This document shows, one piece after another, positions 30,016-49,820 of a stretch of DNA of 64,000 bases (its first letter is position 1; each line of letters opens with the position of its first letter). Source of the DNA: an uncultured delta proteobacterium. Lineage in GTDB: Bacteria > Desulfobacterota > Binatia > UBA9968. Under the pieces are notes generated by a model. That model had not been told where the DNA came from and ran no database searches. It saw only the letters and a list, made by a program, of their open reading frames with translations. The DNA is taken from NCBI GenBank assembly GCA_963760795.1, contig CAVXEP010000018.1:32001-96000 (forward strand). The letters are read 5' to 3'. The translations under genes were made by a program, and so were the position numbers.

Positions 30016-31826
30016 CTAAATTTTCAAATCGGACAACCCGCCCGCCCGCCATCGGGCTCGCGAAATACCGCTTGCAATTTGTCGAGGTCTCGCCGCGACT
30101 CGCTTGTCGCTCCGCAGCTGCGCCACCGGCAGATCCATGAACCTTTCCATGACCACCCGCAACGACTCCGCGTAAACCGTCCGGTCACCGATAAAATTGA
30201 ATGAAGCGGCATACATCGCATGGCCCGTACCGCGAAACTCGATCAGCGCGCGCTCGCCCTTGAGACCATCGCGATAAAAATCCTCGGCTTGGCAGCCGGC
30301 GATCACTGTGTCCCGGGCGCCCTTGAGAATCAGCGTGCGGACCTCATGGCGGATGATTCTTCGGCGTCCAAGGGCAGATCTTTTCCGCTGGAAGGCTCCG
30401 AGTTTCCTGGCTTCGCCGCGTAGCAGTTCTTTGCCGCCGCTGCCGGCGGCGAACGCCGTGACATCTTTGCCGGTGAAGCAGCCGCCGCTGTCGCGCTCGA
30501 TCATGCCCGGCCGCAGTAAAGAACGGGCGACACCATCATACAGGCCGAGCACCTGGTTGGCGCGAATCGATTCCAGTTGCCCGCCGCGTTGGCCGGTCGG
30601 CTTTGCCGGCGCGATGATCTTGCAGTACCCAGTGGCGCATTGGGCGTTTTTTAAAAATGGCGAACTGGCCGCGCACTGGCGCGCCACCGTTGCGTTGCCG
30701 GAGGCGCTTTTCTCCTCGAGAGTTAGATAGTGGCCGATCACCAACGCCGCATCGATTTGCCAGGCGAAGTCACCGGCGTAAGGCTTGACGCCGGATTCCG
30801 GCGCGCCGGTAAACTGCAGCGTTTTAATTGCCGTATAAAATTCCCGCGGGAAGTGCGGACGCGATACGGGCATCAGCCGACTTGAGCAAGTCGTCATAAT
30901 GATCGGTGACGAAATCCACCGAGCCGAACTGTTCCTCGATTTCACTCAGGAGCTTTGCCATCCTATCGCTGAGCAAATTGGCTTGTTCGACATCGATAAA
31001 ACAAAAATTATAGCTGCTGCGAGCGTCCACTAGGGCGCTCACCTCGCCGAGCTTTTCCGTGGCTGTGCCCAAAAACGTTTGCACCGGCACCGGGAGCTTT
31101 CGATCGCGGCAGTCACAAGGCTGCCCGGCCGGCGAACGGTAAGTCGTCAAGATCAATTTCAAGTTTGCCGCGGTCATGTGGGCGCGGGCGGCATGGGTGT
31201 CGCGATCTCGCACCACCGGCGCGGACAAGATCAGCGTCTTGACTTTTTTGGAGCCGAATCTAGCCGCGTACAATTGCGCCGGCAGCGCGCCCCAACTATG
31301 CGAGTAGATCGCGTCCCAGGGTTTGCGGTTGAGCACCGCCTTGCGGATTTTTTCGATGTCGTCGGCGACGTATTCGGCCGCGCAGGAAACGGTCGAACTT
31401 GTTGCTCGCCGGGATCACGCTGCGGCCGCCGCCGCGCAGGTCGAAATAAACTACATTATGATGCGCCTCCAGATGGCCAAGCATACGACCCATCTGGTTG
31501 ACGTTGTCGACCAGCGCGCCGGGCCCGCCGGCAATGAATAAAATATTCTTGCGCTCGGGACGGGCGAGGTTAAACCCCTTGCCGAAAAAATAATACAAGT
31601 CGAACTTACAAGGATCGTCGTGACAATCGATCTCCTTGGGCATCGCCATGTCGTCGGGCAAGAGCCGGACATCGGCGATTTTGCGCATTAGTTGGCCGCT
31701 GCGGCTGGCGGGCCGGGTACTCATCTCCGCCGGTGTCCAATGATAATTCTCGCCGCTCTCGCCGGCGTAGGCGGAACCCGCGACAAGTAAAACTGCGATG
31801 ACACTCAAAGCAAACCGTCGCTGCAT
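30016..31826 (-). CDS. Secreted alpha/beta-hydrolase (S33/TAP-like peptidase); two apparent frameshifts
   Basis: Signal peptide, GGPG, FDLRGGGRS, SHSWG, GARD and GTGH across ORFs 31296..31841, 30824..31336 and 30016..30945; ggaggagg RBS. Confidence 0.75.
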
Positions 31827-31840
31827 TGCATCCTCCTCCA

Positions 31841-34800
31841 TTATGAGCCGTCAGACACCATGTGAAAATTCGCTATATCGCCCTCAGGCCGCGCCACCGC
31901 GGCGCCGAGCATCGCCATGAATCCATCGAGCAACTGTTGGGCGTGGCACTCATCGAACATAGCTGCAGCGGTAGGTGACAGTTACCGTCAACTTAGTTGC
32001 CAGCTCGCGGAACTCGAAACTCAGCTCTGCCGGCGTAAGCGCCACCTCCGGGTCCGCCGCCCGATCCCCGCCATTGGACCAATGCGCAAATCTGACACCA
32101 GCGGCTTCCTCGGATTCGTCAACCATGCGCCGATAGTTGACCATGACCTGATAAAGGGAGATCGGCTCACCGCCCTCGCCCTGCAAACTACGGCTGAGTT
32201 CGGCGATGGGCAGATCTTGATGAGCAAAGGCTTCCTGCGCTACGGATCGGGTCTGTTGCAAAAGATCGTCGAACGACATCCGCGGCGCTACGCGGGTTCG
32301 CAACACCACTGCATTGACGAAGTAGCCGATCAGATTTTCGCGTATGCGGCTGTTGGCGATTTGCCACTAAAGTGCCGATGCAAAGATCGCGGCACCCGGT
32401 CAAACGGTAGAGCCACAAGTTTAACGCCGCCACCAGCACGACAAACGGCGTGGTTTTCCGCGCGCGCGCCAATTCGTGAATTGCCGCGCTGACCGCCGCT
32501 TTCATATCCATCGACAGCCGTCCGCTCCGCAGTGTCAATTTTTTTCGCCGTTTGCCGACCGCAGGAAACTCGATCGTTGGCAACGGACCGGCCAACCGCT
32601 TCTGCCAAAAGTTGAGTTGATCGTCGAATCCGCCGGTATCCAACATGCGCCGCTGCCATCGACTGAAATCGACGAATTGGTACGGCAACGCCGCGACCGC
32701 CGCGGGCTCGCCTTGAGCAAAGGCTTTGTAAAACGCCACAAGCTCGCGGCGAAACAGCCGCATCGACCATTGATCGGCGATCATATGATGCATTGTCACC
32801 AGAAAAATATGTTCCGCCGCGGCCAACCGCACCAAAGTGACCCGGAACGGCGGCCCCTTGTCCAAGTCAAAAATCTCCTGGGCATCCTCGTGGGAGATCC
32901 GCTGCAAGTTCGCTGCTGCGCTTTGGCTCTGGCTTCGCCGCCAAATCGAATCGCCTAAGCGGTACGCGCATTCGGCGCCGGACGACTTGGACGAGCTGGC
33001 CATGGCGCTCGTTTGAAGACCGTGCGCAACACCGCATGGCGCGCCATGATCTTTTCAATGGCACGCCGCAGCGCCGCCTGGTTCAACCGGCCGCTCAGTC
33101 GGTACCCGTACGGGAGGTTCAGAAAATCCGCCCCCGACAACAGGTCATCCATGCGCCAGAAAAGGTCCTGAGCCGATGACACCGGTAACGCACCGCCTTG
33201 TATGGCTCGACGGCAGGATTGGCGGCAGCGCCGCGCGCTCGCCTTTTTCGATCCGAGCAGCGACGCCGGCAACCGTCGGCGCATCGAAAAACTCGCGCAC
33301 GGAGAACTCGGCGCCAAATGCCGCGCGCAGCCGCGCGACTATCTGCATCGCCAATATCGAATGGCCACCGAGCTCGAAGAAGTCATCGTCGACGCCGATC
33401 CAGTCTAAACCCAGCCCTTCGCGCCAGATCGCGGCAACTTTCTCTTCGGTTTCGTTGCGCGGACCCACCAGCTTCGATTCAGCCGCGCGCTGGTGCGCCT
33501 GTGAGCTCCGGCAGCGCGCGTCGATCGATTTTGCCGTTGGGCAGAAGCGGTATGCGCTCCAACCGAACAAACCCCGCCGGTACCATGTAAGCCGGCAGCA
33601 TTTGCTGGAGATATTCGCGCAGCTCACGGTCGGTCGGCGGCATCTGAGGAAACAATGTACGCCACCAACGACTGTCGCCAATTTTGCATTGGTCGCATCG
33701 CACCGCTGGCATCGGTCTGCAGCGGTCACAACACAGTCGTCGATCCTTGGATGACTGCGCAGCGCCGCTTCGATCTCGCCCGGTTCAACCCGCTGGCCGG
33801 CGAATTTGATTTGATTATCCGCGCGGCCGAGATATTCGAGATTGCCATCGGCGCGGTAACGCGCCAAGTCGCCGGTGCGAAACAGCCGGGAGCCCGGATC
33901 GGCGCTGAACGGATTGACGACGAATTTTTCCGCGGTCAGTTCCGGCCGGCGCCAATAGCCCCGCGCCAAGCCGTCGCCGCCGACATACAGTTCGCCGATG
34001 ACGCCGACTGGCACGGGCTGGCGCTGCGCGTCCAGAAGATAACACCGTGGTGTTCGAAATCGGCCGGCCGATGGCCACCGTCTTCCCCGAAGTCCGGCCG
34101 TCATATTCAAAACAGCTTGCGTCGGCGGCGACTTCCGCCGAACCGTAGAGATTGAGCAACACCGCCTTGGGATGACTCTTGCGAAACCGCTCTGCGAGTT
34201 CAGTGCTCAGCGCCTCGCCGCTGCTGGTCCAGAGCTTTAGCCGCGGCAATTTAACCGTCAGATTGACGCCATCGTCGAGAAAGGCTTTTAGCAGCGACGG
34301 CACCAAGACAACACGGCTCACCCGCCGATGGGCGAGAAACTCGATCAGCAAATGGGGATCATGGGCGGTGTCATCGTCAGCGATGGTCAGAGGAACGCCT
34401 TGCAGCAGCGGTCCGAATATTTCCCACACCGAATCGACGAAACTCAATGACGTCTTGCTGCAACAGACCTCGCCAGGACGAAACGGATAGCGCCGCCACA
34501 TCCAGTCACAACGATTGACCACGCCGCGATGAAGCCCGACCACGCCTTTAGGCAAACCGGTGGAACCTGAAGTGTAGATGAGATAAGCGGCGCTTGCCGC
34601 CCTGGACAGTACTGTGGGATTCTCATGACTCTGGCCGGCGAATAGATCGGCATCGTCGAGACAAACCAGCGAAACATTCGCCTGGGAAATTGTGCCGGCG
34701 AGCTCTCGCTGGGTGAGCAAAAGGTCGATTTCAGCGTCAGCGACCATGAATTCCAAGCGCGCGTGCGGATAACTTGGATCGAGTGGCACATAAGCAGCGC

Positions 34801-36609
34801 CGGCTTTGAGAATCCCGAGCATGCCCACGACCATCTCAAGCGACCGCGCGACCAGCAGCCCGACGGGCTTGTCGGCGCCAACGCCACGACCACGTAAAAA
34901 ATGCGCCACGCGATTGGCATGCCGGTTGAGTTCGGCGAAGGTCAACGTTGACGATTGGAACTCTAGGGCAACGGCGTCGGGCGTGCGCGCGACTTGGGCC
35001 TCGAAGAGCTCGTGAATGCAGCTCTGGCTCGGATAAGCTGCCGCGCTGTCGTTCCATTCGACTAAGCATACGCCGCCGCTCGTTGGCACCGAGCAATTCT
35101 AACGCGCCGATAGCGCGATCGGGATTAGTGACAATATCATCGAGCAGCGGCGAAAAATGTCCCGCCATGCGCTCGATGGTCGCGGCGTCGAACAAATCGC
35201 TAGGCGTACTCGAAATAACCGAGCAACCGGCCGCCGCGCTCGCGCAAATAAAGCGAGAGATCGTACTGCGCCGTAGCGTTCTCCACTTCCACCGGGTCGA
35301 TATCTAATCCTTCCGGCACCGCCCAACGGTTCGGCGTGTTCTGCAAAACAAAGAAAGCTTGAAACAACGGCTGGCGATTGAGCTCCCGGCGCGGCTTGAG
35401 TTCCTCGACCAGTTTCTCGAACGGGATAGCCTGGTGCGCGTAAGCATCGAGACAAACTTCGCGCACCCGCCGCAAATAGTCGCGAAAGCTTGGCTGGCCG
35501 CTCAGATCGCCGCGCAGAATCAAAGTGTTGACGAAGAAGCCGATCAGCCCTTCGCATTCGGCGTGAGGACGATGGGTCACCGCGGAACCCACGGCGATAT
35601 CGTCCTGGCCCGAGTAACGATGCAGCAAGAGCTGAAACGCCGCCAACAGCACCATGAACTGCGTCGCTTTCTCCTGCGCAGCCAGGCGATTGAGCGACGC
35701 CGTTAACGATGGTGAAAAATTTATCGGGTAGCGTCCACCGCGAAAACTTTGCCGCACCGGCCGGGGCCGGTCGGTGGGCAGATCGAGGGCTGCCACGCCA
35801 TCCAGCTGTTTACGCCAGTACAGAAGTTGCTCCTGAAGCGGCGCCGTCTCCAAACGGCGGCGCTGCCAAATGGCAAAGTCACCATATTGAATCGGCAATT
35901 CGGCCAAGGGGGATACTTGTCCAGCGGCGAAGGCCACGTAAAGTTGCCAAAGTTCGCCGACGAGAATTCCCATGGACCAGGCATCGGCGACCAAATGATG
36001 GGTAGTTAGAAGCAAAATATGCTCAGCATCGTCGACTTGCAGTAAGCGCGCGCGCAGCAGTCGCCCCGCCGCCAGATCGAAGTAAGTTTCCGCTTCCAGC
36101 TTAATGCGCCGGCGCAGTTCGTTGTCACGTCGGGCGCCGGAAAGCCGACGCAGATCTGTTACCCGCAGCAACCTTGTGGCGTCGGCAACCGGAACTTGCA
36201 TCGGTATGCCGTCGATCGTGCAAAACCTCGACCGGAGCACCTCATGGCGCCGGACAATCTCGTTGAGACTCGCGGCGAGAGTCTGGCGATGGAGCGGACC
36301 GCGTAGGCGGAACCCGCGGCATAAGTTGTAAACCGACCTTTCCGGCTCCAGTTGCGTCAAGAACCACAGACGTTCTTGGGCCAACGACAAAGGTGCCTCT
36401 ACGGCTGTCCTGCGGCGCGGAACGGACGGCGCAACGCTTAAAGCACCGGCGCGAAGCCTCGTTAGCAGCTCGGCTTTTCGCGCGGCGATGGCTGCGCGCA
36501 GCTCATCATGCAGCGCGCCCTTGGGTGCGTTGATGCGCAGCTTATCGCCATCGGCGGATATCGCGATATCGAGCGCACGCAACTGCGCGATGAAGTCCTC
36601 GGTATCTAT
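31841..36609 (-). CDS. NRPS 3: TubC-type docking domain - C - A (beta-Ala-like) - PCP - terminal C; many apparent frameshifts
   Basis: [14 protein letters not shown]; HHLVADA; [11 protein letters not shown]; SFVDSVWE; GGHS; HHMIADQ; start codon uncertain. Confidence 0.85.
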
Positions 36610-39600
36610 ATCTCGATCTCCTCGCGCTCGCCGCCGCCAACCGCCACCGGCTCCACGTTCAAATTCAACGATGTCAGCGAGCGCGCCAACGCCGCCACCG
36701 TCGGCGCCGCGAGAAAGGCGCGTAACTCGATACCGACGCCGAAGTCATTTTTAATCCGCACCGCGGCTTGCGCGGCGAGCAAAGAATGGCCGCCGAGGCG
36801 AAAGAAATTATCCTCGACGCCGATCCGCTCTCGGCCCAATACCTCGGTAAATATCTCGCACAGCTTGGCTTCGACCTCAGAACGCGGCGCGATGGCCGCA
36901 GCGCTCGACTGGGCGCGCGATTCCAGCACCGGCGGCAACGCGTCGTAGTCGAGCTTGCCATTGGGCCCCAGCGGCAGCCGGTCTAGCAGGACGAAATAAC
37001 CCGGCACCATGTAGTCCGGCAGCTTGGCGGCAAGATAGGAACGTAAAACGTCGATCTCGCTTTCCCCTGCTTCGCTGGCGACGACGCAAGCAACTAACCG
37101 TTTATCGAATTTTGGATTTTGGATTTGGGATTTTGGATTGTCGGATTCAGGAGTTGGGAAGTCTCTTGCGATCACCACTGCGTCGAGCACCGTCGAATGT
37201 TGTTTGAGCGCCGTTTCGATTTCCGCCAGCTCGACGCGGAAGCCACGGATGTTGACGCGCCGGTCGGATCGGCCGGCCCACTCGACATTGCCGTCGGGCC
37301 GATAGCGGGCGAGTTCGCCGGTACGATAGAGCCGGTCACGTCCGTCCCCGATGAATGGACTTGCGATAAACATCGCGGCGCTGCGCTCGTCGTCGTCCAG
37401 ATAGCCCAAGGCCAAATGCGGGCTGCGCACATAGAGTTCGCCCAACTCACCGATGCCGCAAAGTCGCCGGCGCTTGTTTAGAACCAGTAACTGCACGTCC
37501 TTGATACCGCGCCCCAACGGCAGCGGCCGCGATGACTGGTCAGCGGCGTCGAGGGTCTCGCCGCCAATCTCATAGTAGCCGACGGCGCGCTGGGTCTCGG
37601 TGGCGCCGTAAAAACTGCCGATCACCGCCTTTGGCGCCAATCGGTGCATGCGCCGCACGTCGTCGCTGGTCAAGACATCGCCGCCGAAAAAGATCCGGCG
37701 CAGCGCCGGCAACGGCCGCTCACCGCCGGCTAAAAGCAACTGGCCCAGCGCCGGCGTGAGATGCAAAACCGTGATGCGATTTTCGTCCAACCATTTTGCC
37801 AGTAAGTCCGGCGCCCGGGCGGTGCGATCGTCGGGAATGTAAAGCGTCGCGCCGAGCGCCAGCGCGGTAAATAGGTCGCGATGCAGATGACTGTAGGCCA
37901 GGCCGGAGAGCATGGCGAAGCGATCGCTCTCACGCAACTCGAAGGCGTCCGCGCTGCCAGGGCAGAAAATGCGTCATCGGCCCATGACCGCAGAGAACGG
38001 CTTTGGGTTCTCCGCTGGAGCCGGATGTAAAGGCGATATAGGCTGGATCGCTGCGCCGCTACCGGCACCGAGACACGGGCCGTTCTCGCTATGCGCCAGT
38101 GCTGCGATAATCGCTGCTTTGCCGCGCGCTAGAGTCATGTGAAATTTGACGTCCAATGCCTTCAGACAGCCGGCCAATTCCGCCGCGAGTTCGGCCGTGC
38201 CATCGAGTTTGATCCAAGCCCTAGGCCGAGCAATTCTCAGGTAATCCAGTGAGCGTGCCGCCGGGTACGCCGGATCGAGAATCAAAAAGCTTGCGCCGGT
38301 TTGAAGAATTCCCAACAGGGCAACGACTAACGACGCATCGCGCGCAGCGTAGATCGCCACCACGTCCTTGGGTTTCACGCCGCCGGCACGGAGCGCGCTG
38401 CTAAGCCGCGCGGCGGCCTGATCAAGCTCGGCGTAGCTCCAACTCTCACCGCCCTGAACTAGCGCAGTTTTTGCCGGCGCATGGCGCGTTTGCTCGGCGA
38501 CCAGTTCATGAATCGCCCCCTCCCAGCGGTCATCGAGCACCGCCGTCGGATCGGGCAGCAACCCCTGCGCCGTTTCGCCAACTAGTGAAAGCTCCTCAAT
38601 CGCCAGCTCAGGACAGCGCAGCGCTTGCGCGAGGATCAGTTCGAATTGTTCGAGCACGGCAGCGATTCGCTCCGGGCGGTAAAGTTCGACATTGTAATCC
38701 ACCGTGAGTTCCACGCTGCCAGCGATTTCCGGCGCCGACAGCACCAAATCGAATTTGGCGCCGGGGGCGCTTGCCATTATCTTGTCGATCTTGCAGCCAG
38801 ACAGCGAAAACCTGCGCTCCGACAGGTCGGCGACATTGAAGAGAATATCGAACAGCGGATTGCGGCTGGGTGCGCGCGCCGGATTGACCTCTTCGACCAA
38901 TTTTTCAAACGGCAACTCTTGATTGCTGTACGCGTCCAAGCAAACTTCGCGAACTCGGCGCAGCAGGCCAACGAAACTCGGATTGTCGCCAAGTTGAAGC
39001 CGAAGCGGCAGGACGTTGATAAAGAAGCCTATGACGCCTTCCATCGCCGCATGATTGCGCCCGCCAACCGTGGAGCCGATGACGACATCGGTCTGGCCGC
39101 CGATCCGCGACAGCAACACGCTGAACGCCGCAAGCAAAGTCATGAACGATGTCACGCCCTGTTGACGAGTGAAACGGTTCAGCGCCGCACTGAGTTCCAC
39201 AGGCAGGCGCCGTACCAATCTGGCGCCGCGGTAGCTGCGCGCCGCCGGACGAGGAAAATCCGTCGGCATCGATACTGGCGTCGGCAAACCGGCGAGATTA
39301 CGCTTCCAGTAATCCAGCTCGGCAGCACAGGCCGGTGAGGCTAGCCACTGCTGCTGCCAAGCAGCGTAATCGGCAAATCGAAGCGGCAATGGTGCGGCTA
39401 ACGCGACTTCCGTACGGCGATAAGACTCATAGCTCAATGAAAGTTCGCGAAAAAAGATCGCCAGAGAGGAACCATCGGCGATGATATGATGAAAGTTCAA
39501 GATCAGCAGATGATCCTGCTCCGCCAGTTTGACCAAGTGAGCACGCCACAGCGGCGCCTGTGCCAAATCATAGGGCGTGCGAGCAACCAGGTCCGCCAGC

Positions 39601-42600
39601 CGACGCCATTCCGATTCCGCTTGGTCCTTGCGGCAAACCGGACAAATCGGTGATCGGCAGCGCAATCGTTATCTCCGCGACAATTTCCTGGCAGGGTTCG
39701 CCGTCAACTTCTTTAATGGCGGTGCGCAGCGCCTCGTGGCGCGCAGTGACCAGATTCAACCCCTGCGCCAATGCTGCAACGTCGAGATCGCCGTCGATGC
39801 GAAATACCGCCGGTATATGGTAAGCAGCGAGATCGCCGTCAAGTTTTTGCAAGAACCACAAACGGCGCTGGGAAAATGACAGCGGCAAATTGCCGCCACG
39901 CGCGATTCGCGCCATCGGCACCACGCCCGTCCCTCTCTGATTACGGCGCAATATGGCAATTTCATCGGCGAGCCCGGCGACGGTGGGCCGTTCAAAGATT
40001 TTCCGCAGCGCCAGATCGACGTTAAAATGGCCGCGCAGGCGCGCCACCACGCGGGTCGCGAGCAGCGAGTGGCCGCCCAGCTGGAAAAAGTTTTCATTGC
40101 ACGCCGAGCCGGTCGCCGTTTCAACACTTCGCGCCAAACCTGCGCCACCAGCTCTTCGATCTCGTCGCGCGGCTCGATAAATTCACTGGGCAGCGCTGGT
40201 TCGCGGTCCATCCGGAGCAGGCAATGCCCGGCGGTCGACTTTACCGTTGGGCGTCAGCGGCAAGGCTGGCAAAGACATGAAAACAGCCGGCACCATGCAG
40301 CTGGGCAACTTAGCGCTCAGGTAGCCACGCAAATCATTTTCCGCCAACGTCACGCCGTCTCGGGGCACCAAGTAGGCGACCAACTCACTCTCGCCCTCGC
40401 CGCCGGTGGCCCCGGCGACGACCGCCGCATCCCGCACCGCTGGATGCAGTCGGAGAACGCTCTCAATCTCGCCCAATTCGATGCGGTAACCGCGCAGCTT
40501 CACCTGGTTATCGGATGCGGCCGAGGTACTCCACGGTGCCGTCGGCCTGATACCGAGCCAGGTCTCCAGTGCGGTAAATCCGTGCACCGGGTTCACGGCT
40601 AAAGGGATTCGCGATAAAGCGCTCCGCGGTCAAGTCCGGCCGATTCAAATAGCCGCGCGCCACGCCGGCGCCGCCGATGTAAAGCTCGCCGACCACGCCG
40701 ATCGGCACCGGCTGCATTACGCCGTCTAGAATATAGAGCTGGGTATTCGCCAGGGGCCGGCCGATGGGAACGGTAGCGCCAACACCCTCGACGCGATGCA
40801 TCGTCGACCAGATGGTGCTCTCGGTGGGGCCATAGAGATTCCACAACTCGCCGCAGCCACGTAAGCGATCGGCCAGAGTCGCGCGGGCAGCGCTTCGCCG
40901 CCGCAGAGAATTTTAAATTCGGCCATCGCCCTGCCAGCCGGCTTCGAGCAGCAGACGCCAGGTCGACGGCGTCGCCTGCATCGTCGTCGCGCCGGAACTC
41001 TTCAACCGTTGCGCCAAACGCTCGCCATCGCGCGCCTCGTCACGGCTGGCGACCACTAATTTGCCGCCCGTGATCAACGGCAACAAGATTTCCGCCGCGG
41101 CGATATCGAAAGAAATCGTCGTCACCGCCAGCCAGACATCGGCTTTGGCTGATTTTCAAATGGCGCTGCATTGAGAGCAGGCAATTGACCAACGAGCGCT
41201 GTTCGATCTCGACGCCTTTAGGATGGCCGGTCGACCCCGAAGTGTAAATTACGTAGGCGAGATCGCGCGGTGAAGACCCGCGCTTAATATTCTCGCTGCT
41301 ATGGGTTTCGATATTTCGTCGCTCACGATCTAATAAGATGACGATGGGGTCGAGAATGGAGGATTGAGGATCGAGGATCGCTATCATCCATTTTCCATCC
41401 TCGATCGTCGGCGATACTCTTCTGGCTAATCAGCACCGACACCTGCGCGTCGTCTAAAATAAATTCCAGCCGTTCTCTCGGATATTCCGGGTCGAGCGGC
41501 AAATAGGCCGCGCCGGCTTTGAGCACGGCGAGCAGTGCAACGACCATGTCGACCGAGCGCTCCAGGCATAGGGCGACGACGCAGTTTCGCCCGACGCCAA
41601 GTTTTGTTAAATAGCGCGCCAAGCGGTTGGCGCGGCGATTCAGTCGGCCGTAGGTCAAACGCTCCGGGCCGCACTCAAGCGCCAGCGCGCTCGGCGTGCG
41701 CTGCGCTTGGCGTTCGAACAATTGATGCACACAAGCCTTCGGTACAACCGCGCGCGTTCGGTTCCACTCGATCAACAAACGGCGGCGCTCCTTTTCGCCC
41801 ATCATCGGCAGTCGGGCAATCGACCGATCTGGCTCGGCGACGATCGCGTTCAGCAGCGTGAGGAAATGTTGCAGCATGCGCGCGATGGTGTCGTCGGCGA
41901 ATAGTGACCTGCGATATTCAACAAAGCCGCTGAGCCGGCCGTCGCGTTCGCCCAACGCCAGACTGAGATCGTATTTGGCCCCGCCGCTGTCGCAGTCGAT
42001 GGCCTCGCTGCGAATGCCGTGCAGGCTCAATTCGGCGGGCAACTGGTTTTGAAACGTGAACAGCGTCTGGAAAATCGGCGTGCGGCTGGGATCGCGCGAT
42101 TGCTTCAACTCATCGACCAGCCGCTCGAACGGCAGCTCCTGATGCGCCAGCGCCTCTTGCAAGTTAGTCGCGCAGCCTTGCCAGCAGTTGGGTAAATGTC
42201 GGATCGCCGGCGAGATCGCTGCGCAGCGCCAGGGTATTGACGAACGAGCCGATGAGATTCTCCAGCGCTGGATGGTCGCGATTGGCCACCGGGAAACCGA
42301 CAACGAGATCGTCCTGCCGCGTGTAGCGCCAGAGCAGGACGTTGAACGCCGCCATCAAGGTGACGAACAGCGTGTTCGACGCCCTGGCGCTCAGTTCTTT
42401 GAGCCCGGCGGTGAGCGCTTTGTCGAGTATGATTTTCTGCCGCGCGCCTTTTAAGCTCGCGGCTGCCGCCCGCGGCTTATCCGCCGGCAGATCGAGAACC
42501 GGCAACACGCCGCCCAACTGTTTTTTCCAATAGGCCAGTGGCGCCGCCAAGGCTGCATCGTCGAACCCCCGGCGCTGCCAAAGCGCGTAGTCGCCATACT

Positions 42601-43256
42601 GCACCGGCAACTCGGCGAGGGAAGCGGCTTCGGCTGCGCCGCCGTTGGCGTAAAGCGCTTCGAGTTCACGGTAAAACAGATCGAGCGAGCGGCCATCGCA
42701 CACCGCCTGGTGCGCGACAAAAACGAAAACATGGTCTTGGCGATCGAGTTGAAGCAGCGTAACGCGCAGCAGCGGTTCGGCGCTAAGATTGAAACAATGG
42801 CCAGCTTCGGCGCCCACCCGCAGGCCGATTTCCTCGTCACGGAGATTGACGCGCGATATGGCGCAAATCGAACATTTGCAGCGCCGGCGCGGTCAACGGC
42901 AAGACCTGCTGCAGCGGCCGATCGCCGTCATTCGCCAACACTGTGCGCAGCACTTCGTGGCGCTGCACGATACGCTGCACGCAACGGCTGAGCAGCGTGA
43001 CGTCGAGCGCCCCCTTGAGACGCCAAGCGCGGGCGACGTTGTAAACCGCACTGGCCGGCTCCCACTGCTGCAAAAACCACAAGCGCTCCTGAGCGAATGA
43101 CAGCGGCACGACTGCGCCGCTGGGGCGCGGCGTGATTGCGCTCGCAGCACCAGCGTCTGAATCAGTACTTTTGTCCCGCAGCCGCGCCAGTAAACGCAGC
43201 TTGGCCGCGCCCAGCGCGGCGCCGGACTGGGGCTTGGAGTGGCGAGTCGTGTTCAT
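36606..43256 (-). CDS. NRPS 2: C - A (Gly-like) - PCP - C - A (Lys2/aminoadipate-like) - PCP; many apparent frameshifts
   Basis: [11 protein letters not shown]; HQAVCDG; SFDIA; NLYGPTESTIW; GGHS; HHIIADG; YGATETQRA; GGHS; ends EREEIEI. Confidence 0.87.
37109..37147. repeat. Heptamer array (attttgg-like, four units plus a degenerate fifth) in frame inside an NRPS A domain
   Basis: Encodes SDNPKSQIQNPKF on the minus strand. Confidence 0.8.
41352..41409. repeat. Inverted pair of heptamer arrays (gaggatc x4 / catcctc-like x4) inside an NRPS A domain
   Basis: Directly visible; coincides with a +1 frame change. Confidence 0.75.
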
Positions 43257-43260
43257 TCTA

Positions 43261-45192
43261 TTAATCGTCACCCAGCGCCCGGTAAATCTGCTCGGGCGCC
43301 ATGCCATCGATCTCGAGCATGAGTCGCGCGCTTTCCGCCGCTGCGCCTGGGCAACGTTCTTGAGCCGTGATCCATGCCGCGAGCTGCGCCACGGTCGGCG
43401 TGGCAAATAGTGTTTTCAATGGCTGGGTCAAGGCAAACAGTTGGTTCACCCGTGCGACAATTGCGTTGGCCAGGAGCGAGTCGCCGCCAAGGGCGAAGAA
43501 ATCGTCAGCGCTGCCCAATTCCTCCAACTGCAAGACCTCGCGCCAAAGCTGCACCAGGACGGTCTCCAGTTGGTTCCGCGGCGCGGCATAAGGAACATCG
43601 AGGGCGGCGCGCGAATGGCGCGCCTCCGGCAATCCACGCCGGTCGATCTTGCCGCTGCGGGTCATCGGCAGGCGGGCCAATTGAACAAACGCGGCGGGAA
43701 TCATGTAATCGGGTAATTTTTCTTGCAACGCGCCGCGGATTTGACTCACGTTCATGGCGGTACCGGCCCGCAAGACGACGTAGGCCAATAACCGCGCGCC
43801 GCCATCGCGCTGCTGCCGTGCCACCACCGCCGCTTGTACGATGCCGACGATCTCGAGCAAGGCGATTTCAACTTCGGCAAGCTCGACCCGGTGGCCTCTA
43901 ATTTTGGCTTGCAAATCTTTTCTGCCGACATGAACCAGACAACCATCCGGCCGCAAATAACCTAGGTCGCCGGAAAGAAATATGCGCGCGTCGCTGCCGG
44001 CGGGATCGGTTAAGAACTTGGCTTGGGTCAATTCCGGACGACGCCAATAGCCGCTGGCGAGAAAGCGGCTCTTTACCGCGATTTCACCGACAGTGTTTGC
44101 CGCCACCGGCTTTCCCGCTTCGTCCAGCACGGCGATTTCGTAACCGTCCAAGGCAAAGCCAACCGGCACCACCGGTTCTTCGACGATGCTATTCTTGTCG
44201 ATGAAAAAATAGCTGGCGGTCTTGGTCTCGCTGATGCCAAGCCGGTTGACCAACCGGCAGCCGTCGATGAAGTGTTGCTTGAACAACTCGATGTCGGATT
44301 GAAACAGCGCCTCGCCGCCGAGATGAACCAAGCGAACACTAGGGAAAGTGGCGTGGTGGTCGACGTTGCGCAGCGCGTGGCGAAACACACTGGCGACACA
44401 AGTGAAGAACCGTGATCTCATCACCGATCAGCCAGTCGGCCAAACCGGCCAGTCCCTCTTCCTTGAGTTCCAACAGACACAGCGCCGCGCCATTGAGCAA
44501 TCCCAGGAGCGCATCGGAAGTGGCGCCGACGTTGTGCGAGCGCAGCAGGCTGATGCGATCCGACGGTGTAATTGCCAACGCTTTGGCCTTGACCAGAATG
44601 CTATGCAACTCGCTGCCATGGTCCGACATGACGCCTTTGGGCTCGCCGGTGGAGCCGGAAGTGTAGTTGATATAGGCGATGGCGCTGGGCGCGATCGCCA
44701 ACCCGAGATTGCTGTCGGCGAGATCGTCCTTGAGCGCGTCGAGATTGATCACGATAACATCGCCCCCGGCAAGCTCACGGGCGCAGCGATAGTGCTCGCT
44801 GTCGGTGACGATCGCGCGCGCGCCCTGCGTCTTCAATCAGCCGGGCGGCCCGCGCTTGCGGTAGTTTGTCGTCGATCTGGACAAACGGCCGGCCGGTCTT
44901 GAGCACCGCCAGGTTCGCTGTGATCAGCGCGCTTCCGTGTTTGAAGAGCAACGCGATCGGTTCGTCGCCTGCCGGCGATGCAGTCAAGATCGCACGGCCC
45001 AGCCGGTTCGCCGCGCGATTCAGTTGATCGTAGGTCAGCGCCTGATTCAAAGTTTTCAGGGCGAGGCGCGCGCCATGGAGCGCCACCTGCTGTTCGAAGC
45101 GGCCGGTGAGCGATTGCGCTGCCCCAGAGATACCGCGGGAACAGATTCTCAGACGATCGTTTTCGCTGTGGTTTGGCCAGCCGTCGAGTCAT
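43261..45192 (-). CDS. NRPS 1: stand-alone A-PCP loading module with an atypical substrate pocket; three apparent frameshifts
   Basis: LTYDQLN, YTSGSTGEPKG, LGGE, SGDLG, KIRGHRVELAEVE, SGKIDR, FFALGGDSL. Confidence 0.87.
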
Positions 45193-45234
45193 GAGCGCTA
45201 AAAAACTTTCGGGGATTTTTTCCGGCGGCGACGG

Positions 45235-48200
45235 CTAACGAAACCGAGTTGAATCACTTTCGCCCATAGTCAGGAAGCCAGTCATCGCCAGAGCGGCGAA
45301 AAGTTCCCGCGCGGCGCTCGACTCTTGGCGCGCCTGCTCAAGGTTTCCCGCCACCCCATAGACTTGGGCAAGCGCCGCATGACAATGCGCCTGGAGCGGC
45401 CGCATCGCCATATCACTGGCAAGACTCAACGCTTCGCGATAGTGCCCCTCGGCCTGCTCGATTTGTTTAACGGTGAGGCGCATGGCGATATCGCCGCGCA
45501 GCTTGAGCGCCAAAGCGCCATGACCCGGCTCTTTGTGTTGTTTGGATAACTCACAGGCACGATCCGCCAAGACCATCGCTTCGTCGATGCGATTGGCGCT
45601 CAAGTAGGCGTCGCTCAGCCAAGCGAGATTAAGCGCCAAGAACCCAGCCCGGCCCACCGCGGCGGAATCTTCGATGCTTTGCTCGAGTAGCCGCAACCCT
45701 TCAGCCTGACGGCCGGCACGGACATAAGCGTAACCCAGTCGCGGCGCAACCAAGGGCACATAAATCGCGATATGTTTCTCCTCGCACAGAGTCATCGCCC
45801 GCTCCAAGACTGGTATCGCTTCGTGAAAGTCACCCTTGAAAAGATACAGAAAACCGAGACTGGCGTTGACGTGAATCTGACTCACCGGATGATTCGCCTC
45901 ATCGGCGATCTGCACGCCCTCGGCGCCGCGCTCCAGCCCTTCGGCAAAATCCCCGGTCATCGCCAAGGATTGCAACAAATGGCTGCGAAAGATCACCGAA
46001 AGAATCACCGTGGTGCCGAAACGTTGGTGGCGCAAAGCCCCCTCGACGCTTTGCATGCCGCTGCGCAGCACCGTCGCGGCGCGCCCATACTGGGCGACTT
46101 TGTTGTAAGCCACTCCGGTGTAGTAACTGGCCACCGCCCGCAATGCGGTGTCCTCTTGGGTGGCCGGCATCGCCAAGGCACGCTGGCCGGCTGCGATCGC
46201 CCGCTCGGGATCGCCGATCAAACCGTAATAACTATTTTGAAAATTGAGCACCCGCGCCAAGCGCCGGCTGTCGCCGATCCGTTCGGCGAGCGTCTCGGCT
46301 TGCGTCAGATGGTCACCGACCCGCGGTAAATCGCCGCGCAGAAACAGCACGTTGCGGCAGTCCAGGTGCAGATCGATGCGCTGCTCAAGTCGCGCCGCGG
46401 TTTCCGGCAGATGGCCGAGCGCTTCAAAGGCGCGGGTATAGTTATCAAAGGCCTCGCCGAAAGCCGAATGGCTCATCGCCTTGGCGCCCGCTTGGCTCAT
46501 ATAGTCGGCGGCTTTTTCCCATAACTCGCCGCGAAACGCGTGGTCCGCGAGCGCTTCAATCTCGTCGAGCGGATTGCCGCCGCTTAGCCGCTCGATCGCC
46601 GCCGCAGTCTGCGCATGCAGCGCTGTCTTGCGCTCGTGCAATAATGCGCCGTACACCACTTCGTTGATCAACGCGTGGGTAAATTTGTATTCCAACTTGG
46701 GATATAAGTTGCTTTCATAAAGAAACTCGCCGGTTTGTAAATGGCTCAAGGCGCCGCGCAGTTCTTCTTCCGGCAATCCCGTGATGCCATGGAGCAGCCG
46801 CTCGGGAACGATCATGCCGATGACCGCGGCGCTTTGCAGTAGTTGTTTCTCCAGCGCCGGCAAGCGATCGATGCGATCGGCGAGAACCGTTTGCACGGTG
46901 TTGGGAATACGAATGTTCTCGACCTGCACCCCCGGGCGATAGTTTCCCTTCGCGCCAATCAGAATGCCCGAAGCGGTCAAAGAGCGCACGCTCTCTTCGA
47001 CGAAGAACGGGTTACCATCCGTCCGGCTGATCAGCAGCTGTTTGACCGTCGCCAGATCGCCATGAGCGCCCATCAGCGCATCGAGCAACTCTTCCGCGCC
47101 TGCCGCCGTTAATGGATTGAGACGTAAACGGCTGTAGTGCTCTTTATTGGCCCATGCGTGGCTGTAGCCCGGCCGGTAATTGACCACTAAGCAGATCCGC
47201 CCGCTCGGCAGCCGATCGACTAAAGCGTCGAGAAACGCTTGGGTCTCGCTGTCGATCCAGTGCAAGTCTTCAAAAACTAAAAGCAGCGGTTTCACGCCAC
47301 TCGCTTGTAAGAGCACGCGCACTAAAGCCGCCAGGGTCGATGCACGCCGATCCGGCAAATCCATGGCGCGGTAGTTCGCCGCCGCGACCGCGACCGCCGG
47401 GAACGTTTCGCTCCAGCGCGACAGCAAATCGCCCGGCTCGGTCGATGCATCCGGCAGCGCATCCAGCAGCGCCAGTATCGGCGCCACCGCCTCGCTCAGA
47501 TTTACGTCAAGTGTCTGCATCTCTTCGGCGACCCGCGAGCGCACAGCATCGGCGTCGTCAGTTTCGTGCAGGTTAAAAAATGTCCGCAGCAATTCGATCA
47601 CCGGGAAATAGGGCGTCGCCTTGCCATAGGACACCGACGGCGCTTCAAGCACGCGCCACTCGGAGGAGACGTGATGATCGAGAAACTGGCGCAGTAAACG
47701 GGACTTGCCCATGCCGGCTTCGCCGACCACTGCCAAGATCCGGCCATGACCGGCGGCAGTTTGCGCCAACATTTGCTGGGCAAACGCAATCTCGGTCCGG
47801 CGTCCGACGAAGGGTGATAGTCCACGCGCCTCCGCCGCTTGCAAGCGATTACGCGCCGCGGTGGCTCCGGTCAGTTCAAAGGCATCGATGGCAGTGGAAA
47901 AGCCCTTGACTTGGAGCGCGCCCAACGGCCGCACCACGACGAAACCTTCTACTTCGCGCAAGGTGTCGGCGGTGATCGCGATCGATCCCGGCCCCGCCAG
48001 GGATTCCATGCGCGCGGCGAGATGCGTCGTTTGCCCGAGCGCCGAGTAGTCGATGTTGAGATCGTTGGTCAGCGAGCGGACGACCACCTCGCCGGAGTTG
48101 ATGCCGATGCCGATCTGCAGCGGCGTCGGCTGGGGCAACGGGCCATCCGTGCCGCCACCACGGCGCAATTCCGCTTGCATCGCCAGCGCCGCGTAGCATG

Positions 48201-48687
48201 CCCGCAGGGCGTGATCTTCATGCGCCAGGGGCGCGCCAAACAGCGCCATGATGCCATCGCCCAAAACTTGATTGACCGTGCCGTCGTAACGATGCACCGC
48301 GGCCATCATGACCCGCAGCACTGGATCGAAATGTTTACGCACCTCCTCCGGATCGAGTTTCTCGATGAAACTGGTCGAACCGCGGATGTCGGCGAACAAG
48401 ACCGTCACTCTTTTACGTTCGCCTTCCATGAAGCGGCGCGACGCGAGCATGCGATCCGCGACGTTATCGGTTGTAACGGCTGCAGCCGCAGCAGCCGGCG
48501 CCGCCGCGTTGACTGCATCACCAAGCCGGGCGCCGCACTTTTTGCAGAATTTCGCGCCTCTGCGATTGCTTTCGCCGCATTGCCCGCAGTTGGCATCGAG
48601 CGGCGCGCCGCATGCGTCGCAAAACTGCGCATCCGCCGCGTTGCCATTCTGACAAGCGCGGCAAATTATTCTTGGCTCCTCCGCCAT
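45235..48687 (-). CDS. Double zinc ribbon - class III nucleotide cyclase - AAA ATPase - TPR protein
   Basis: Four CxxC pairs; VLFADIRGST, LGDGIMALFG; GEAGMGKS, FEDLHW, GNPFFVEE; helical repeats at the C-terminus. Confidence 0.92.
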   Translation of the reverse strand: MAEEPRIICRACQNGNAADAQFCDACGAPLDANCGQCGESNRRGAKFCKKCGARLGDAVNAAAPAAAAAAVTTDNVADRMLASRRFMEGERKRVTVLFADIRGSTSFIEKLDPEEVRKHFDPVLRVMMAAVHRYDGTVNQVLGDGIMALFGAPLAHEDHALRACYAALAMQAELRRGGGTDGPLPQPTPLQIGIGINSGEVVVRSLTNDLNIDYSALGQTTHLAARMESLAGPGSIAITADTLREVEGFVVVRPLGALQVKGFSTAIDAFELTGATAARNRLQAAEARGLSPFVGRRTEIAFAQQMLAQTAAGHGRILAVVGEAGMGKSRLLRQFLDHHVSSEWRVLEAPSVSYGKATPYFPVIELLRTFFNLHETDDADAVRSRVAEEMQTLDVNLSEAVAPILALLDALPDASTEPGDLLSRWSETFPAVAVAAANYRAMDLPDRRASTLAALVRVLLQASGVKPLLLVFEDLHWIDSETQAFLDALVDRLPSGRICLVVNYRPGYSHAWANKEHYSRLRLNPLTAAGAEELLDALMGAHGDLATVKQLLISRTDGNPFFVEESVRSLTASGILIGAKGNYRPGVQVENIRIPNTVQTVLADRIDRLPALEKQLLQSAAVIGMIVPERLLHGITGLPEEELRGALSHLQTGEFLYESNLYPKLEYKFTHALINEVVYGALLHERKTALHAQTAAAIERLSGGNPLDEIEALADHAFRGELWEKAADYMSQAGAKAMSHSAFGEAFDNYTRAFEALGHLPETAARLEQRIDLHLDCRNVLFLRGDLPRVGDHLTQAETLAERIGDSRRLARVLNFQNSYYGLIGDPERAIAAGQRALAMPATQEDTALRAVASYYTGVAYNKVAQYGRAATVLRSGMQSVEGALRHQRFGTTVILSVIFRSHLLQSLAMTGDFAEGLERGAEGVQIADEANHPVSQIHVNASLGFLYLFKGDFHEAIPVLERAMTLCEEKHIAIYVPLVAPRLGYAYVRAGRQAEGLRLLEQSIEDSAAVGRAGFLALNLAWLSDAYLSANRIDEAMVLADRACELSKQHKEPGHGALALKLRGDIAMRLTVKQIEQAEGHYREALSLASDMAMRPLQAHCHAALAQVYGVAGNLEQARQESSAARELFAALAMTGFLTMGESDSTRFR

Positions 48688-48758
48688 CTTTGCGTATTTA
48701 ACGCAATTCCAGCGACGGCGCAAAGAGATTGGCCGGTAATAAGAGATTCGCCGCGAAT

Positions 48759-49820
48759 TTAGGATTCTTCGCGATACAGCCGCAAGGCATCGAACAAAGG
48801 CCGGTCGGAGACGGAGAAAAGAATCGTGTCCTCGGAACTGGATGTGTTGAGAAAACGGTGCCAGTGCCAAGTCGGCACATTGAAGCAATCGCGCTCCTGC
48901 CACGTCAAGTCGCTGGCAACGGCGCGCTGCTTGCCGATCATGGCCACTCCCTGACCGCGCACCACGTGATAAACGGTATTGCCGGTGTGGCGATGCGGCT
49001 GCGTCTGTTCGCCGGGACCGAGCAGTTGCATGCGGCAGCTCATCGTCGCCGTAGTCGGACCACCGTCCTGCGGATTGCGGAACTCCAACACGGCGCCGTC
49101 GAATGGATCGCGCTCTCCCGACAGCGCCAGATCTTTCAATGCGTTATAAGTTTCCGCCCAGCGGTATTTCACCGGAAACGGCCCCGGCCCATCGAGCACG
49201 CCCTGCGCCCGCAGCGGTCCCAGTTGCTTCATGTGAAAGCCGTCAGGTTTGGTGATCGGCTGCGAAAAACTTTCTGGATACCGCTGGTTTTCCCAATTAT
49301 CGAGATACTGCATCAGTGCGGTGTCCATGGCGGTAAACCAAATCGCCGGCTCCGATCCGGTATTGGTCGTGCCATGCCAAGTCCAACTCGGCTGCGTCAG
49401 CAAATCCCCCGGCTCCATGAACTGCTGCTCGCCCTCCGCGGTGGTATAAATGCCGCTGCCTTGAATCGCCAAGTAGACTGAAGTCGCCGTATGGCGGTGC
49501 GAGTCGGTCACTTCACCGCCGTTGACATGCTGCAACATGGCGGCAAAAGTGCGCGACACCCCGAGCGGAAGGATATCGGCAGAGTTGGTCATATGCAGGG
49601 TGCGCATGCGCATGACTTCATCGAGCGGCGCCAGTTCCCCGGCTTCGAGCAACAGCGGCGCCATCTCGCTCCAGCGCCATACCGATGGGCGAATTTCTTC
49701 CTGCTTCACCGCGCCCCGTTCGCGCTGCCATGCGCCGCGCAGAGAGCTTTGCTGGACTCTAGAGTTTAGGGTTTCGAGTCGATCGATAAGGACCTTAGAA
49801 TTAGAAATGGTATCGGCCAT
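48759..49820 (-). CDS. Bicupin, gentisate 1,2-dioxygenase-like
   Basis: SHRHTAT…PSWTWHG; PHRHTG…PTWHWH; FSVSDRP. Confidence 0.88.
   Translation of the reverse strand: MADTISNSKVLIDRLETLNSRVQQSSLRGAWQRERGAVKQEEIRPSVWRWSEMAPLLLEAGELAPLDEVMRMRTLHMTNSADILPLGVSRTFAAMLQHVNGGEVTDSHRHTATSVYLAIQGSGIYTTAEGEQQFMEPGDLLTQPSWTWHGTTNTGSEPAIWFTAMDTALMQYLDNWENQRYPESFSQPITKPDGFHMKQLGPLRAQGVLDGPGPFPVKYRWAETYNALKDLALSGERDPFDGAVLEFRNPQDGGPTTATMSCRMQLLGPGEQTQPHRHTGNTVYHVVRGQGVAMIGKQRAVASDLTWQERDCFNVPTWHWHRFLNTSSSEDTILFSVSDRPLFDALRLYREES

Follow-up and report, generated by a model that had tools for sequence, protein, structure and literature searches.

A Lys2-like adenylation domain with Ser in place of Asp235 in a nonribosomal peptide synthetase of an uncultured Binatia bacterium, and the clade to which it belongs

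Which acid is loaded by an adenylation (A) domain that has Ser in place of the Asp at position 235 (PheA numbering)? The specificity rules and prediction tools for A domains work on the assumption that amino acids go with Asp235, keto acids with a hydrophobic residue at 235 and aryl acids with Asn235. The question is raised by a nonribosomal peptide synthetase (NRPS) locus of about 13 Kb, with three genes and four modules, in a stretch of 64,000 nucleotides (the window; positions 32,001 to 96,000 of contig CAVXEP010000018.1, assembly GCA_963760795.1) from an uncultured delta proteobacterium of the Binatia (UBA9968). A preliminary description of the window had likened the A domain of module 3 to the fungal aminoadipate reductase Lys2, with Ser-His in place of Asp-Pro, and had proposed an anionic acid without an alpha-amino group as its substrate. 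In this genome (G000) the locus is split into many frames; in intact orthologous clusters the three open reading frames (ORFs) have 668, 2221 and 1601 aa and show the same domains in Pfam. Module 3 is essentially in a single frame: tblastn with the orthologs of genomes G023 and G011 gives a single high-scoring segment pair in frame -3 (39620-36666 and 39626-36675, respectively) with 55-56% identity. Its ORF piece 36606-37973 (minus strand) shows AMP-binding, AMP-binding_C and PP-binding domains in Pfam, and a condensation (C) domain precedes them. As expected for an NRPS A domain, PF00501 matches both window pieces and the G023 ortholog scores 368 bits on TIGR01733, which has a cut-off of 317 bits.

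The four motifs quoted in the preliminary description are all present on the minus strand, within that ORF piece and spanning 37575-37919 (Table 1). The HMMER alignment to LgrA pairs Y-S-H-L-H-R-D with F-D-G-S-A-L-D, L-H-L-T-P with S-Y-L-P-T, F-F-G-G-D with I-T-G-G-D, and F-Y-G-A-T-E-T-Q-R-A with G-Y-G-P-T-E-C-T-I-M, which places Ser at the equivalent of Asp235, His at 236 and Arg at 239. The alignment thus bears out the replacement of Asp-Pro by Ser-His, with Tyr-Ser-His where ordinary A domains have Phe-Asp-x, and the Asp or Glu at 235 that marks amino-acid-activating A domains is absent. Position 278 is taken to be the His of LHLTPA, an assignment that also leans on the PheA numbering. The specificity code is S235, H236, R239, H278, F299, G301, F322, R330, A331 and K517, without any acidic residue, as read from the LgrA alignment and from the GrsA code table, which gives D-A-W-T-I-A-A-I-C-K for positions 235 to 517 (PMC11355689). 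Among the core motifs, A3, A5 and the Lys of A10 are present, A3 being out of frame in this genome; A7 and A8 carry the replacements given in Table 1, and A10 is GKLDY. The orthologs keep A3 (FTSGSTGEPKG), A5 (YGATE), the A8 Arg and the A10 Lys.

The Lys2 likeness is supported by the NCBIfam scores. TIGR03443 is the top family for the module-3 A domain, with 458 bits in the intact G023 ortholog (368 bits on TIGR01733) and 350 bits in the window piece (233 bits on TIGR01733). The control A domains A1, A2 and A4, taken from the orthologous G011 cluster (L020), score 169, 250 and 228 bits on TIGR03443, which ranks 11th of the listed families, 11th of 11 and 9th of 11, respectively, and 293, 465 and 427 bits on TIGR01733. 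Since the controls favour the generic TIGR01733, the domain is specifically Lys2-like. It is not a Lys2, because it has no reductase (R) domain and both of its scores are far under the TIGR03443 equivalog cut-off of 1030 bits. Lys2 is presumed to have R239, H278 and TETQRAV, which are traits of the class of the module-3 A domain, and Asp-Pro at 235-236, whereas the module-3 type shows Ser/Asn-His, together with Asp to Glu in A7 and Lys to Asn in A8. Lys2 is A-T-R (T, carrier domain; PMC2823734), whereas module 3 is C-A-T without a reductase; the gene ends after it, and the next subunit starts with its docking domain. On TIGR03443, scores of 524 and 556 bits are reached by two sister domains that have His-Asp-Pro. 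The best 60 matches of PDB sequence searches are ordinary A domains (LgrA, PvdL, SrfA-C, GrsA and others) with no Lys2-like structure among them, and the ESM Atlas returned only generic 'adenylation domain' clusters.

The relatives with His234-Asp235-Pro236 and TETQRAV in A5 form a bacterial class (HDP class), found in multimodular NRPSs of Acidobacteriota, Chloroflexota, Gemmatimonadota and Binatia-titled metagenome-assembled genomes, in C-A-T modules like module 3. The module-3 A domain and the HDP class have in common R239, R330, A331, K517, LSGL…RD, HLTPA, TETQRAV and RSPHLA; they differ by H234Y, D235N/S, P236H, A277L, V301G, N321S, D413E, Q432R, K434N/S and GKxDR to GKxDY, so that His-Asp-Pro itself is absent from the module-3 A domain. 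Two adenylation codes with DPRH were found in open-access papers, DPRHLALLAK and DPRHVSLLAK, both without R330; the exact codes presumed for McyE and Lys2 were found in no open-access paper. We know of no characterised substrate for the HDP class or for the clade with Tyr-Ser/Asn-His at 234-236 (Y-S/N-H clade). A motif scan of 80 named loci gave HDP in 43, YNH in 15, YSH in six and YSL in one, with five unread. The codons at 235 among the named loci are Asp GAY in 55, Asn AAY in 16 and Ser AGY in eight, counts that fit a putative path of single transitions from D235 (GAY) through N (AAY) to S (AGY). The 80 loci yielded 62 complete stop-free domains (19 of the clade, 41 of the HDP class and two unclassified), 18 being dropped for contig ends or stops. 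In the tree (66 rows, quick search, no bootstrap), the 19 clade domains are all on one side of a branch with an SH-aLRT of 100 and are nested among the HDP domains, and the branch parting the HDP class from four other A domains also has an SH-aLRT of 100. The phylogeny with bacterial homologues, which had been suggested as a check on the Lys2 likeness, therefore places the module-3 A domain within a single clade nested in Lys2-like HDP domains, and the topology indicates that the Y-S/N-H subclass arose once inside the bacterial class.

The two groups are separated by ten columns. In the 19 clade domains, position 234 is Tyr (19), 235 is Asn (13) or Ser (six), 236 is His (18), 277 is Leu (19), 301 is Gly (18), 321 is Ser (14), 413 in A7 is Glu (18), 432 is Arg (16), 434 in A8 is Asn (13) or Ser (six), and the residue after GKxD in A10 is Tyr (16). 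In the 41 HDP domains, the same columns show His (41), Asp (41), Pro (41), Ala (29), Val (36), Asn (38), Asp (41), Gln (41), Lys (39) and Arg (37), respectively. The changes at 234, 235, 236, 277, 301 and 321 are around the substrate pocket, and those at 413, 432, 434 and in A10 are on the catalytic and hinge surface. A background sample was formed by the 150 best matches of a whole-library HMMER search with a 350-aa piece, which are giant multimodular NRPSs ranked by summed domain scores. Their 789 A7-A8 units contain no true case of Glu in A7, all 14 matches of the regular expression to 'E' being the upstream F.[ST]GE motif, and N or S at 434 in four.

Among the loci of relatives, four of nine show Y-S-H and five show Y-N-H at 234-236. 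Matches at E<=1e-60 are present in 13 of 24 other genomes of the genus (including the unpublished G004) and in none of 16 genomes from the two other families of the order. A phylum-wide search found none at E<=1e-200 in 400 other genomes, with only three candidates per genome scored, and is weak evidence for a restriction of the domain to one genus. In a collection of 5.8 billion proteins, the best 120 matches include 69 of the clade type (Y/F-S/N-H/L/Y) and 41 HDP; most of them are fragments from soil metagenomes, with 'amino acid adenylation domain-containing protein' as their only name. Rarer variants at 234-236 in this collection are F-N-L, Y-N-Y, T-N-K and S-N-P. The A7 of the 69 clade-type matches is TGE in 48, TGD in six and unread in 15. 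No description of the Y-S/N-H clade was found in the open-access full texts of the literature.

The ratio of nonsynonymous to synonymous substitution rates (dN/dS) is 0.15-0.23 in four ortholog pairs, the fifth pair being saturated at synonymous sites, and by this measure the Y-S/N-H subclass is under purifying selection. The clade domain is in an elongation C-A-T module in every case. A carrier-domain motif is located about 2475 nt upstream in 23 of the 24 clade loci, the contig of the other being too short, and the domain is in the last module of its protein, with the ORF end 405-451 aa past position 235, in 19 of the 24. The A4 motif of the upstream neighbour varies (FDIAALE, FDVSVWE, FDLSVFE or FVDSVWE), and that of the downstream neighbour is FVDS[VI]WE in 12 and FD-type in six of the 18 clade loci that are readable. 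Because the neighbouring A domains vary between loci, the unit loaded by module 3 would be used in several related peptides. On these comparisons, the Y-S/N-H clade is very probably a real, functional and specialised subclass of Lys2-like NRPS A domains. It fits none of the three rules for position 235, yet it is conserved and under selection; besides lacking Asp235, it is altered at two catalytic residues that are near-universal, and it accounts for at least 69 of the best 120 database matches and occurs in at least 13 of the 24 genomes sampled from one soil genus.

Other A domains without Asp235 offer comparisons for the substrate. The α-keto-acid A domains (StsA, cereulide and cryptophycin type) lack Asp235, like the module-3 A domain, and lead to ester bonds in the NRPS line. 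They combine a residue 235 that is aliphatic or hydrophobic with a ketoreductase (KR) in the module (PMC10949194, PMC13643306 and PMC11355689), whereas the module-3 A domain shows a polar Ser/Asn, no KR and a Lys2-like lineage. An assignment as an α-keto-acid A domain (Ak) was ruled out by the polar 235 and the absence of a KR in Pfam scans. The aryl-acid A domains (DhbE/EntE type) have Asn235, which is also the residue of most members of the Y-S/N-H clade; they are stand-alone or loading enzymes of a separate lineage, whereas the module-3 A domain is in an internal elongation module. An aryl-acid assignment was rejected on this internal position and on the TIGR02275 score of the ortholog, 99 bits against a cut-off of 724 bits. 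In the fungal ATRR glycine betaine reductase, the absence of D235 correctly signalled a non-standard substrate, as is proposed for module 3; ATRR is A-T-R-R and holds a cationic substrate by cation-π contacts, whereas the module-3 pocket is strongly basic. According to the same source (10.1101/559534), aryl, keto or hydroxy acids are the substrates of most characterised A domains that lack D235.

With the change of Asp235, the module-3 pocket appears to have been left without any acidic residue and to have acquired a His; it would now contain H236, R239, H278, R330 and K517. Such a pocket would most likely bind and adenylate an anionic acid without a free ammonium group in the position that Asp235 served, and an anionic acid without an α-amino group is thus tentatively favoured as the substrate, a hydroxy-substituted dicarboxylic acid being perhaps the leading candidate. 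Aryl-acid domains use Asn at 235 to hydrogen-bond the hydroxyl of the substrate; because the residue of the clade is a polar Asn or Ser, an anionic hydroxy acid would be favoured for module 3. The acid would be loaded onto the carrier domain of its own module and linked to the growing chain by the upstream C domain, through an ester bond in case a hydroxyl acts as the nucleophile. A β-Ala-like unit would be added by the next subunit, and the terminal C domain would release a four-unit product. The ester bond, branch or non-linear assembly put forward in the preliminary description is a conjecture, and the domain is located in an ordinary elongation C-A-T module. A wider proposal is unlikely as a whole: that the clade is a new selector class with a wholly basic pocket (S/N235, H236, R239, H278 and R330) and retuned nucleotide and hinge contacts (D413E, K434N/S and R to Y after the A10 Lys), which would activate a polyanionic non-amino acid (hydroxy-di- or tricarboxylate, phospho- or sulfo-acid), ester-linked mid-chain, the products being short anionic depsipeptides of an uncultured soil genus. 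The substrate of module 3, once found, would add an NRPS building block and possibly a new mode of recognition, and would also open the chemistry of the large Lys2-like class in Acidobacteriota, Chloroflexota and Binatia-titled genomes.

Several points weigh against a non-amino anionic acid. The Arg/His/Arg pocket residues, on which the preliminary description had relied, are indeed kept, but they lose their value as a substrate clue since they are class-wide: R239 is present in 19 of 19 clade and 39 of 41 HDP domains, R330 in 19 of 19 and 41 of 41, and H278 in 19 of 19 and 27 of 41. The argument from a basic pocket is weak because R239 is near-invariant and R330 invariant across the class. 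The hydrophobic 235 and the KR of the known keto-acid A domains (PMC10949194 and PMC13643306) have no counterpart here, residue 235 being polar and no KR being found in the Pfam scans of the window pieces or of the intact orthologs. No precursor-supply or tailoring gene is evident beside the cluster, which is flanked by regulators and a secreted hydrolase. An amine-free substrate would need another nucleophile for the upstream C domain, which would have to be of an ester-forming kind. Since D413E and K434N/S are at catalytic contacts, they may signify a lower activity, and D413E is usual but not obligatory, because six of the 54 readable clade-type proteins keep TGD.

The main rival to a non-amino anionic acid is that the module-3 A domain still loads an amino acid, which would likely be acidic (Asp, Glu, aminoadipate or a hydroxylated relative) and activated at either the α- or the side-chain carboxyl, with the amine held by Ser/Asn235, His236 and backbone carbonyls, and with a normal or iso-peptide bond as the result. 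Such loading would agree with an ordinary elongation module in which the preceding C domain is intact (HHIIADG) and a carrier domain lies upstream in 23 of 24 loci, with the nesting of the domain in a class where 41 of 41 members keep D235, with an aminoadipate-activating enzyme as the closest curated family and with the lack of any hydroxy-acid supply or KR gene found nearby. It is nevertheless doubtful, since amino-acid A domains pair the α-amino group with a conserved D235 (PMC11355689), the loss of D235 is fixed clade-wide together with the further pocket changes at 234, 236, 277, 301 and 321, and the module-3 code has no other acidic residue. If the domain merely loads an acidic amino acid, the result would be a modest footnote on code degeneracy. 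A catalytically weakened or inactive domain, acting mainly as a scaffold while its carrier domain is loaded in trans or skipped, comes third and is improbable. Near-universal residues are hit in it, Asp to Glu in A7 being found in none of 775 other A7-A8 units and Lys to Asn/Ser in A8 in four of 789, but A3, A5, the A8 Arg and the A10 Lys are fully conserved, the low dN/dS values stand against it, the changes are uniform across the clade and not scattered, and Asp to Glu is a conservative change.

That Ser is a sequencing artefact, or a quirk of a decaying pseudogene in one genome, is highly improbable, although the NRPS locus of this genome is visibly disturbed. Compared with G019 it has 51 indels, all in 45303-31379 (NRPS and hydrolase genes) and none in the 3.9 Kb upstream (regulator gene); 33 of them are extra single bases in G000, outside homopolymer runs, and three scramble the A3 motif of the module-3 A domain. 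Because these three extra bases shift the frame, an in-frame TGA is located at 37974-37976, and the earlier picture of an intact reading frame for this domain in G000 is corrected. However, G019 and G022 have the same AGT codon within identical flanking DNA, Ser (AGY) or Asn (AAY) is found in 24 related named loci as well as in the 69 clade-type database matches, and the orthologous clusters show intact ORFs of 2221, 2236 and 2840 aa. The prospect, raised in the preliminary description, that corrected reads would restore Asp was not borne out, Ser/Asn codons recurring across relatives, and an artefactual origin of Ser itself is refuted. The single-base indels of G000 are probably for the most part assembly (consensus) errors and not decay. 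Base 38050 is missing from short contigs (95-99% identical) of the soil runs X1 and X5, and exactly three gaps are present in the X1 contig over 37762-38810; the public-run contigs derive from relatives 90-99% identical and not from the source sample, and they show that one or more of the extra bases are absent from close relatives. Relatives assembled in many short contigs have intact ORFs of 2221-2236 aa; among the few-contig genomes, G000 and G019 are fragmented and G014 is intact, with 2840 aa. The G000 lineage shows 15 unique amino-acid changes versus eight in G019, with a G000-G019 dN/dS of 0.29, and on these figures some real decay in G000 is possible, which also counts against a working domain in this copy. 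The pattern of indels at 31379-45303 is either an odd error pattern or local decay.

Table 1. Features of the NRPS cluster and of the module-3 A domain in the window (positions are those of the window)
Feature	Positions	Strand	Basis
Whole NRPS cluster: A-T / C-A-T-C-A-T (second A, module-3 A domain) / TubC_N docking-C-A-T-C	31950..45190	minus	Pfam on ORF pieces
Module 3, C-A-T, essentially single frame; stop at 36606-36608	36606..39620	minus	tblastn
Active-site motif of the upstream C domain, HHIIADG	39471..39491	minus	ORF translation
Module-3 A domain, LPDPTAVLDDRWEGAIHEL through A10 motif PNGKLDY	36945..38558	minus	Pfam, tblastn, NCBIfam
Out-of-frame stretch from three extra single bases (38079, 38050, 37951); A3 motif DPAYIAFTSGSSGEPKAV… in another frame	37951..38079	minus	three-frame translation and G019/G022 DNA alignment
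FAMLSGLAYSHLHRDLFT	37866-37919	minus	exact string match
Tyr234-Ser235-His236 codons (PheA numbering), Ser = AGT	37887..37895	minus	LgrA alignment
VLHLTPALGQLL	37734-37769	minus	exact string match
FFGGDVLT	37668-37691	minus	exact string match
A5 motif FYGATETQRAVGY, with code positions F322, R330 and A331	37575..37613	minus	alignment
A7 motif YRTGE, Glu replacing ribose-binding Asp413	37314..37328	minus	column comparison
A8 motif GRSDRRVNIRG, Asn replacing Lys434 and Arg replacing Gln432	37242..37274	minus	column comparison
T domain motif LGGHSLL, phosphopantetheine attachment site	36777..36797	minus	Pfam
Start of next NRPS gene, TubC_N docking domain and C domain	35200..36744	minus	Pfam

The other modules of the cluster show A domains of different types. 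The stand-alone loading A-T (43264-45190, minus; L020:5993-7996) also lacks Asp235, with a code of approximately A-G-S-T-R-G-V-T-R-K and SSTETNTYR as A5, and scores 293 bits on TIGR01733, under the cut-off of 317 bits; the chain probably starts with something other than an amino acid. Paralogs of the loading A-T in G000 (L005-L008) show similar non-FD A4 motifs and open frames of 646-966 aa. The module-4 A domain (33818-35098, minus; L020:16234-17823) shows Val-Asp at 235-236, within SFVDSVWE, and its code in G011 is VDWSSSLADK, which we take to resemble a β-alanine or β-amino-acid code. The module-2 code varies between orthologous clusters, being DILSLGLI-K in G011 (L020), presumably Gly-like, and DVWSFSLIDK in G023 (L021), presumably Ser-like; since these codes differ, the cluster family would make variants. 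The NRPS terminates in a C domain, without a thioesterase (TE) domain. Directly downstream of the NRPS there is a gene encoding a secreted α/β-hydrolase, S33 or proline-iminopeptidase-like (30016-31850, minus; also L018:11526-13325), which has about 600 aa when intact, is in the same position in G014 and is in three frames in G000. Upstream, a gene encoding a STAND-type regulator (45235-48903, minus) shows a double zinc ribbon, an adenylate/guanylate cyclase domain, AAA_16 and MalT-like TPR repeats; it adjoins the cluster in G000, G014, G019 and G011 (also L019:6586-10089 and L022:2498-5980). Within the module-3 A domain, the variable loop between A8 and A9 (…NPKSQIQNPKFDKR…; 37107-37154, minus) is short and simple-repeat-like, and its length varies among orthologs. 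Unrelated metagenome contigs stack on 37107-37154, with a summed depth of up to 130.

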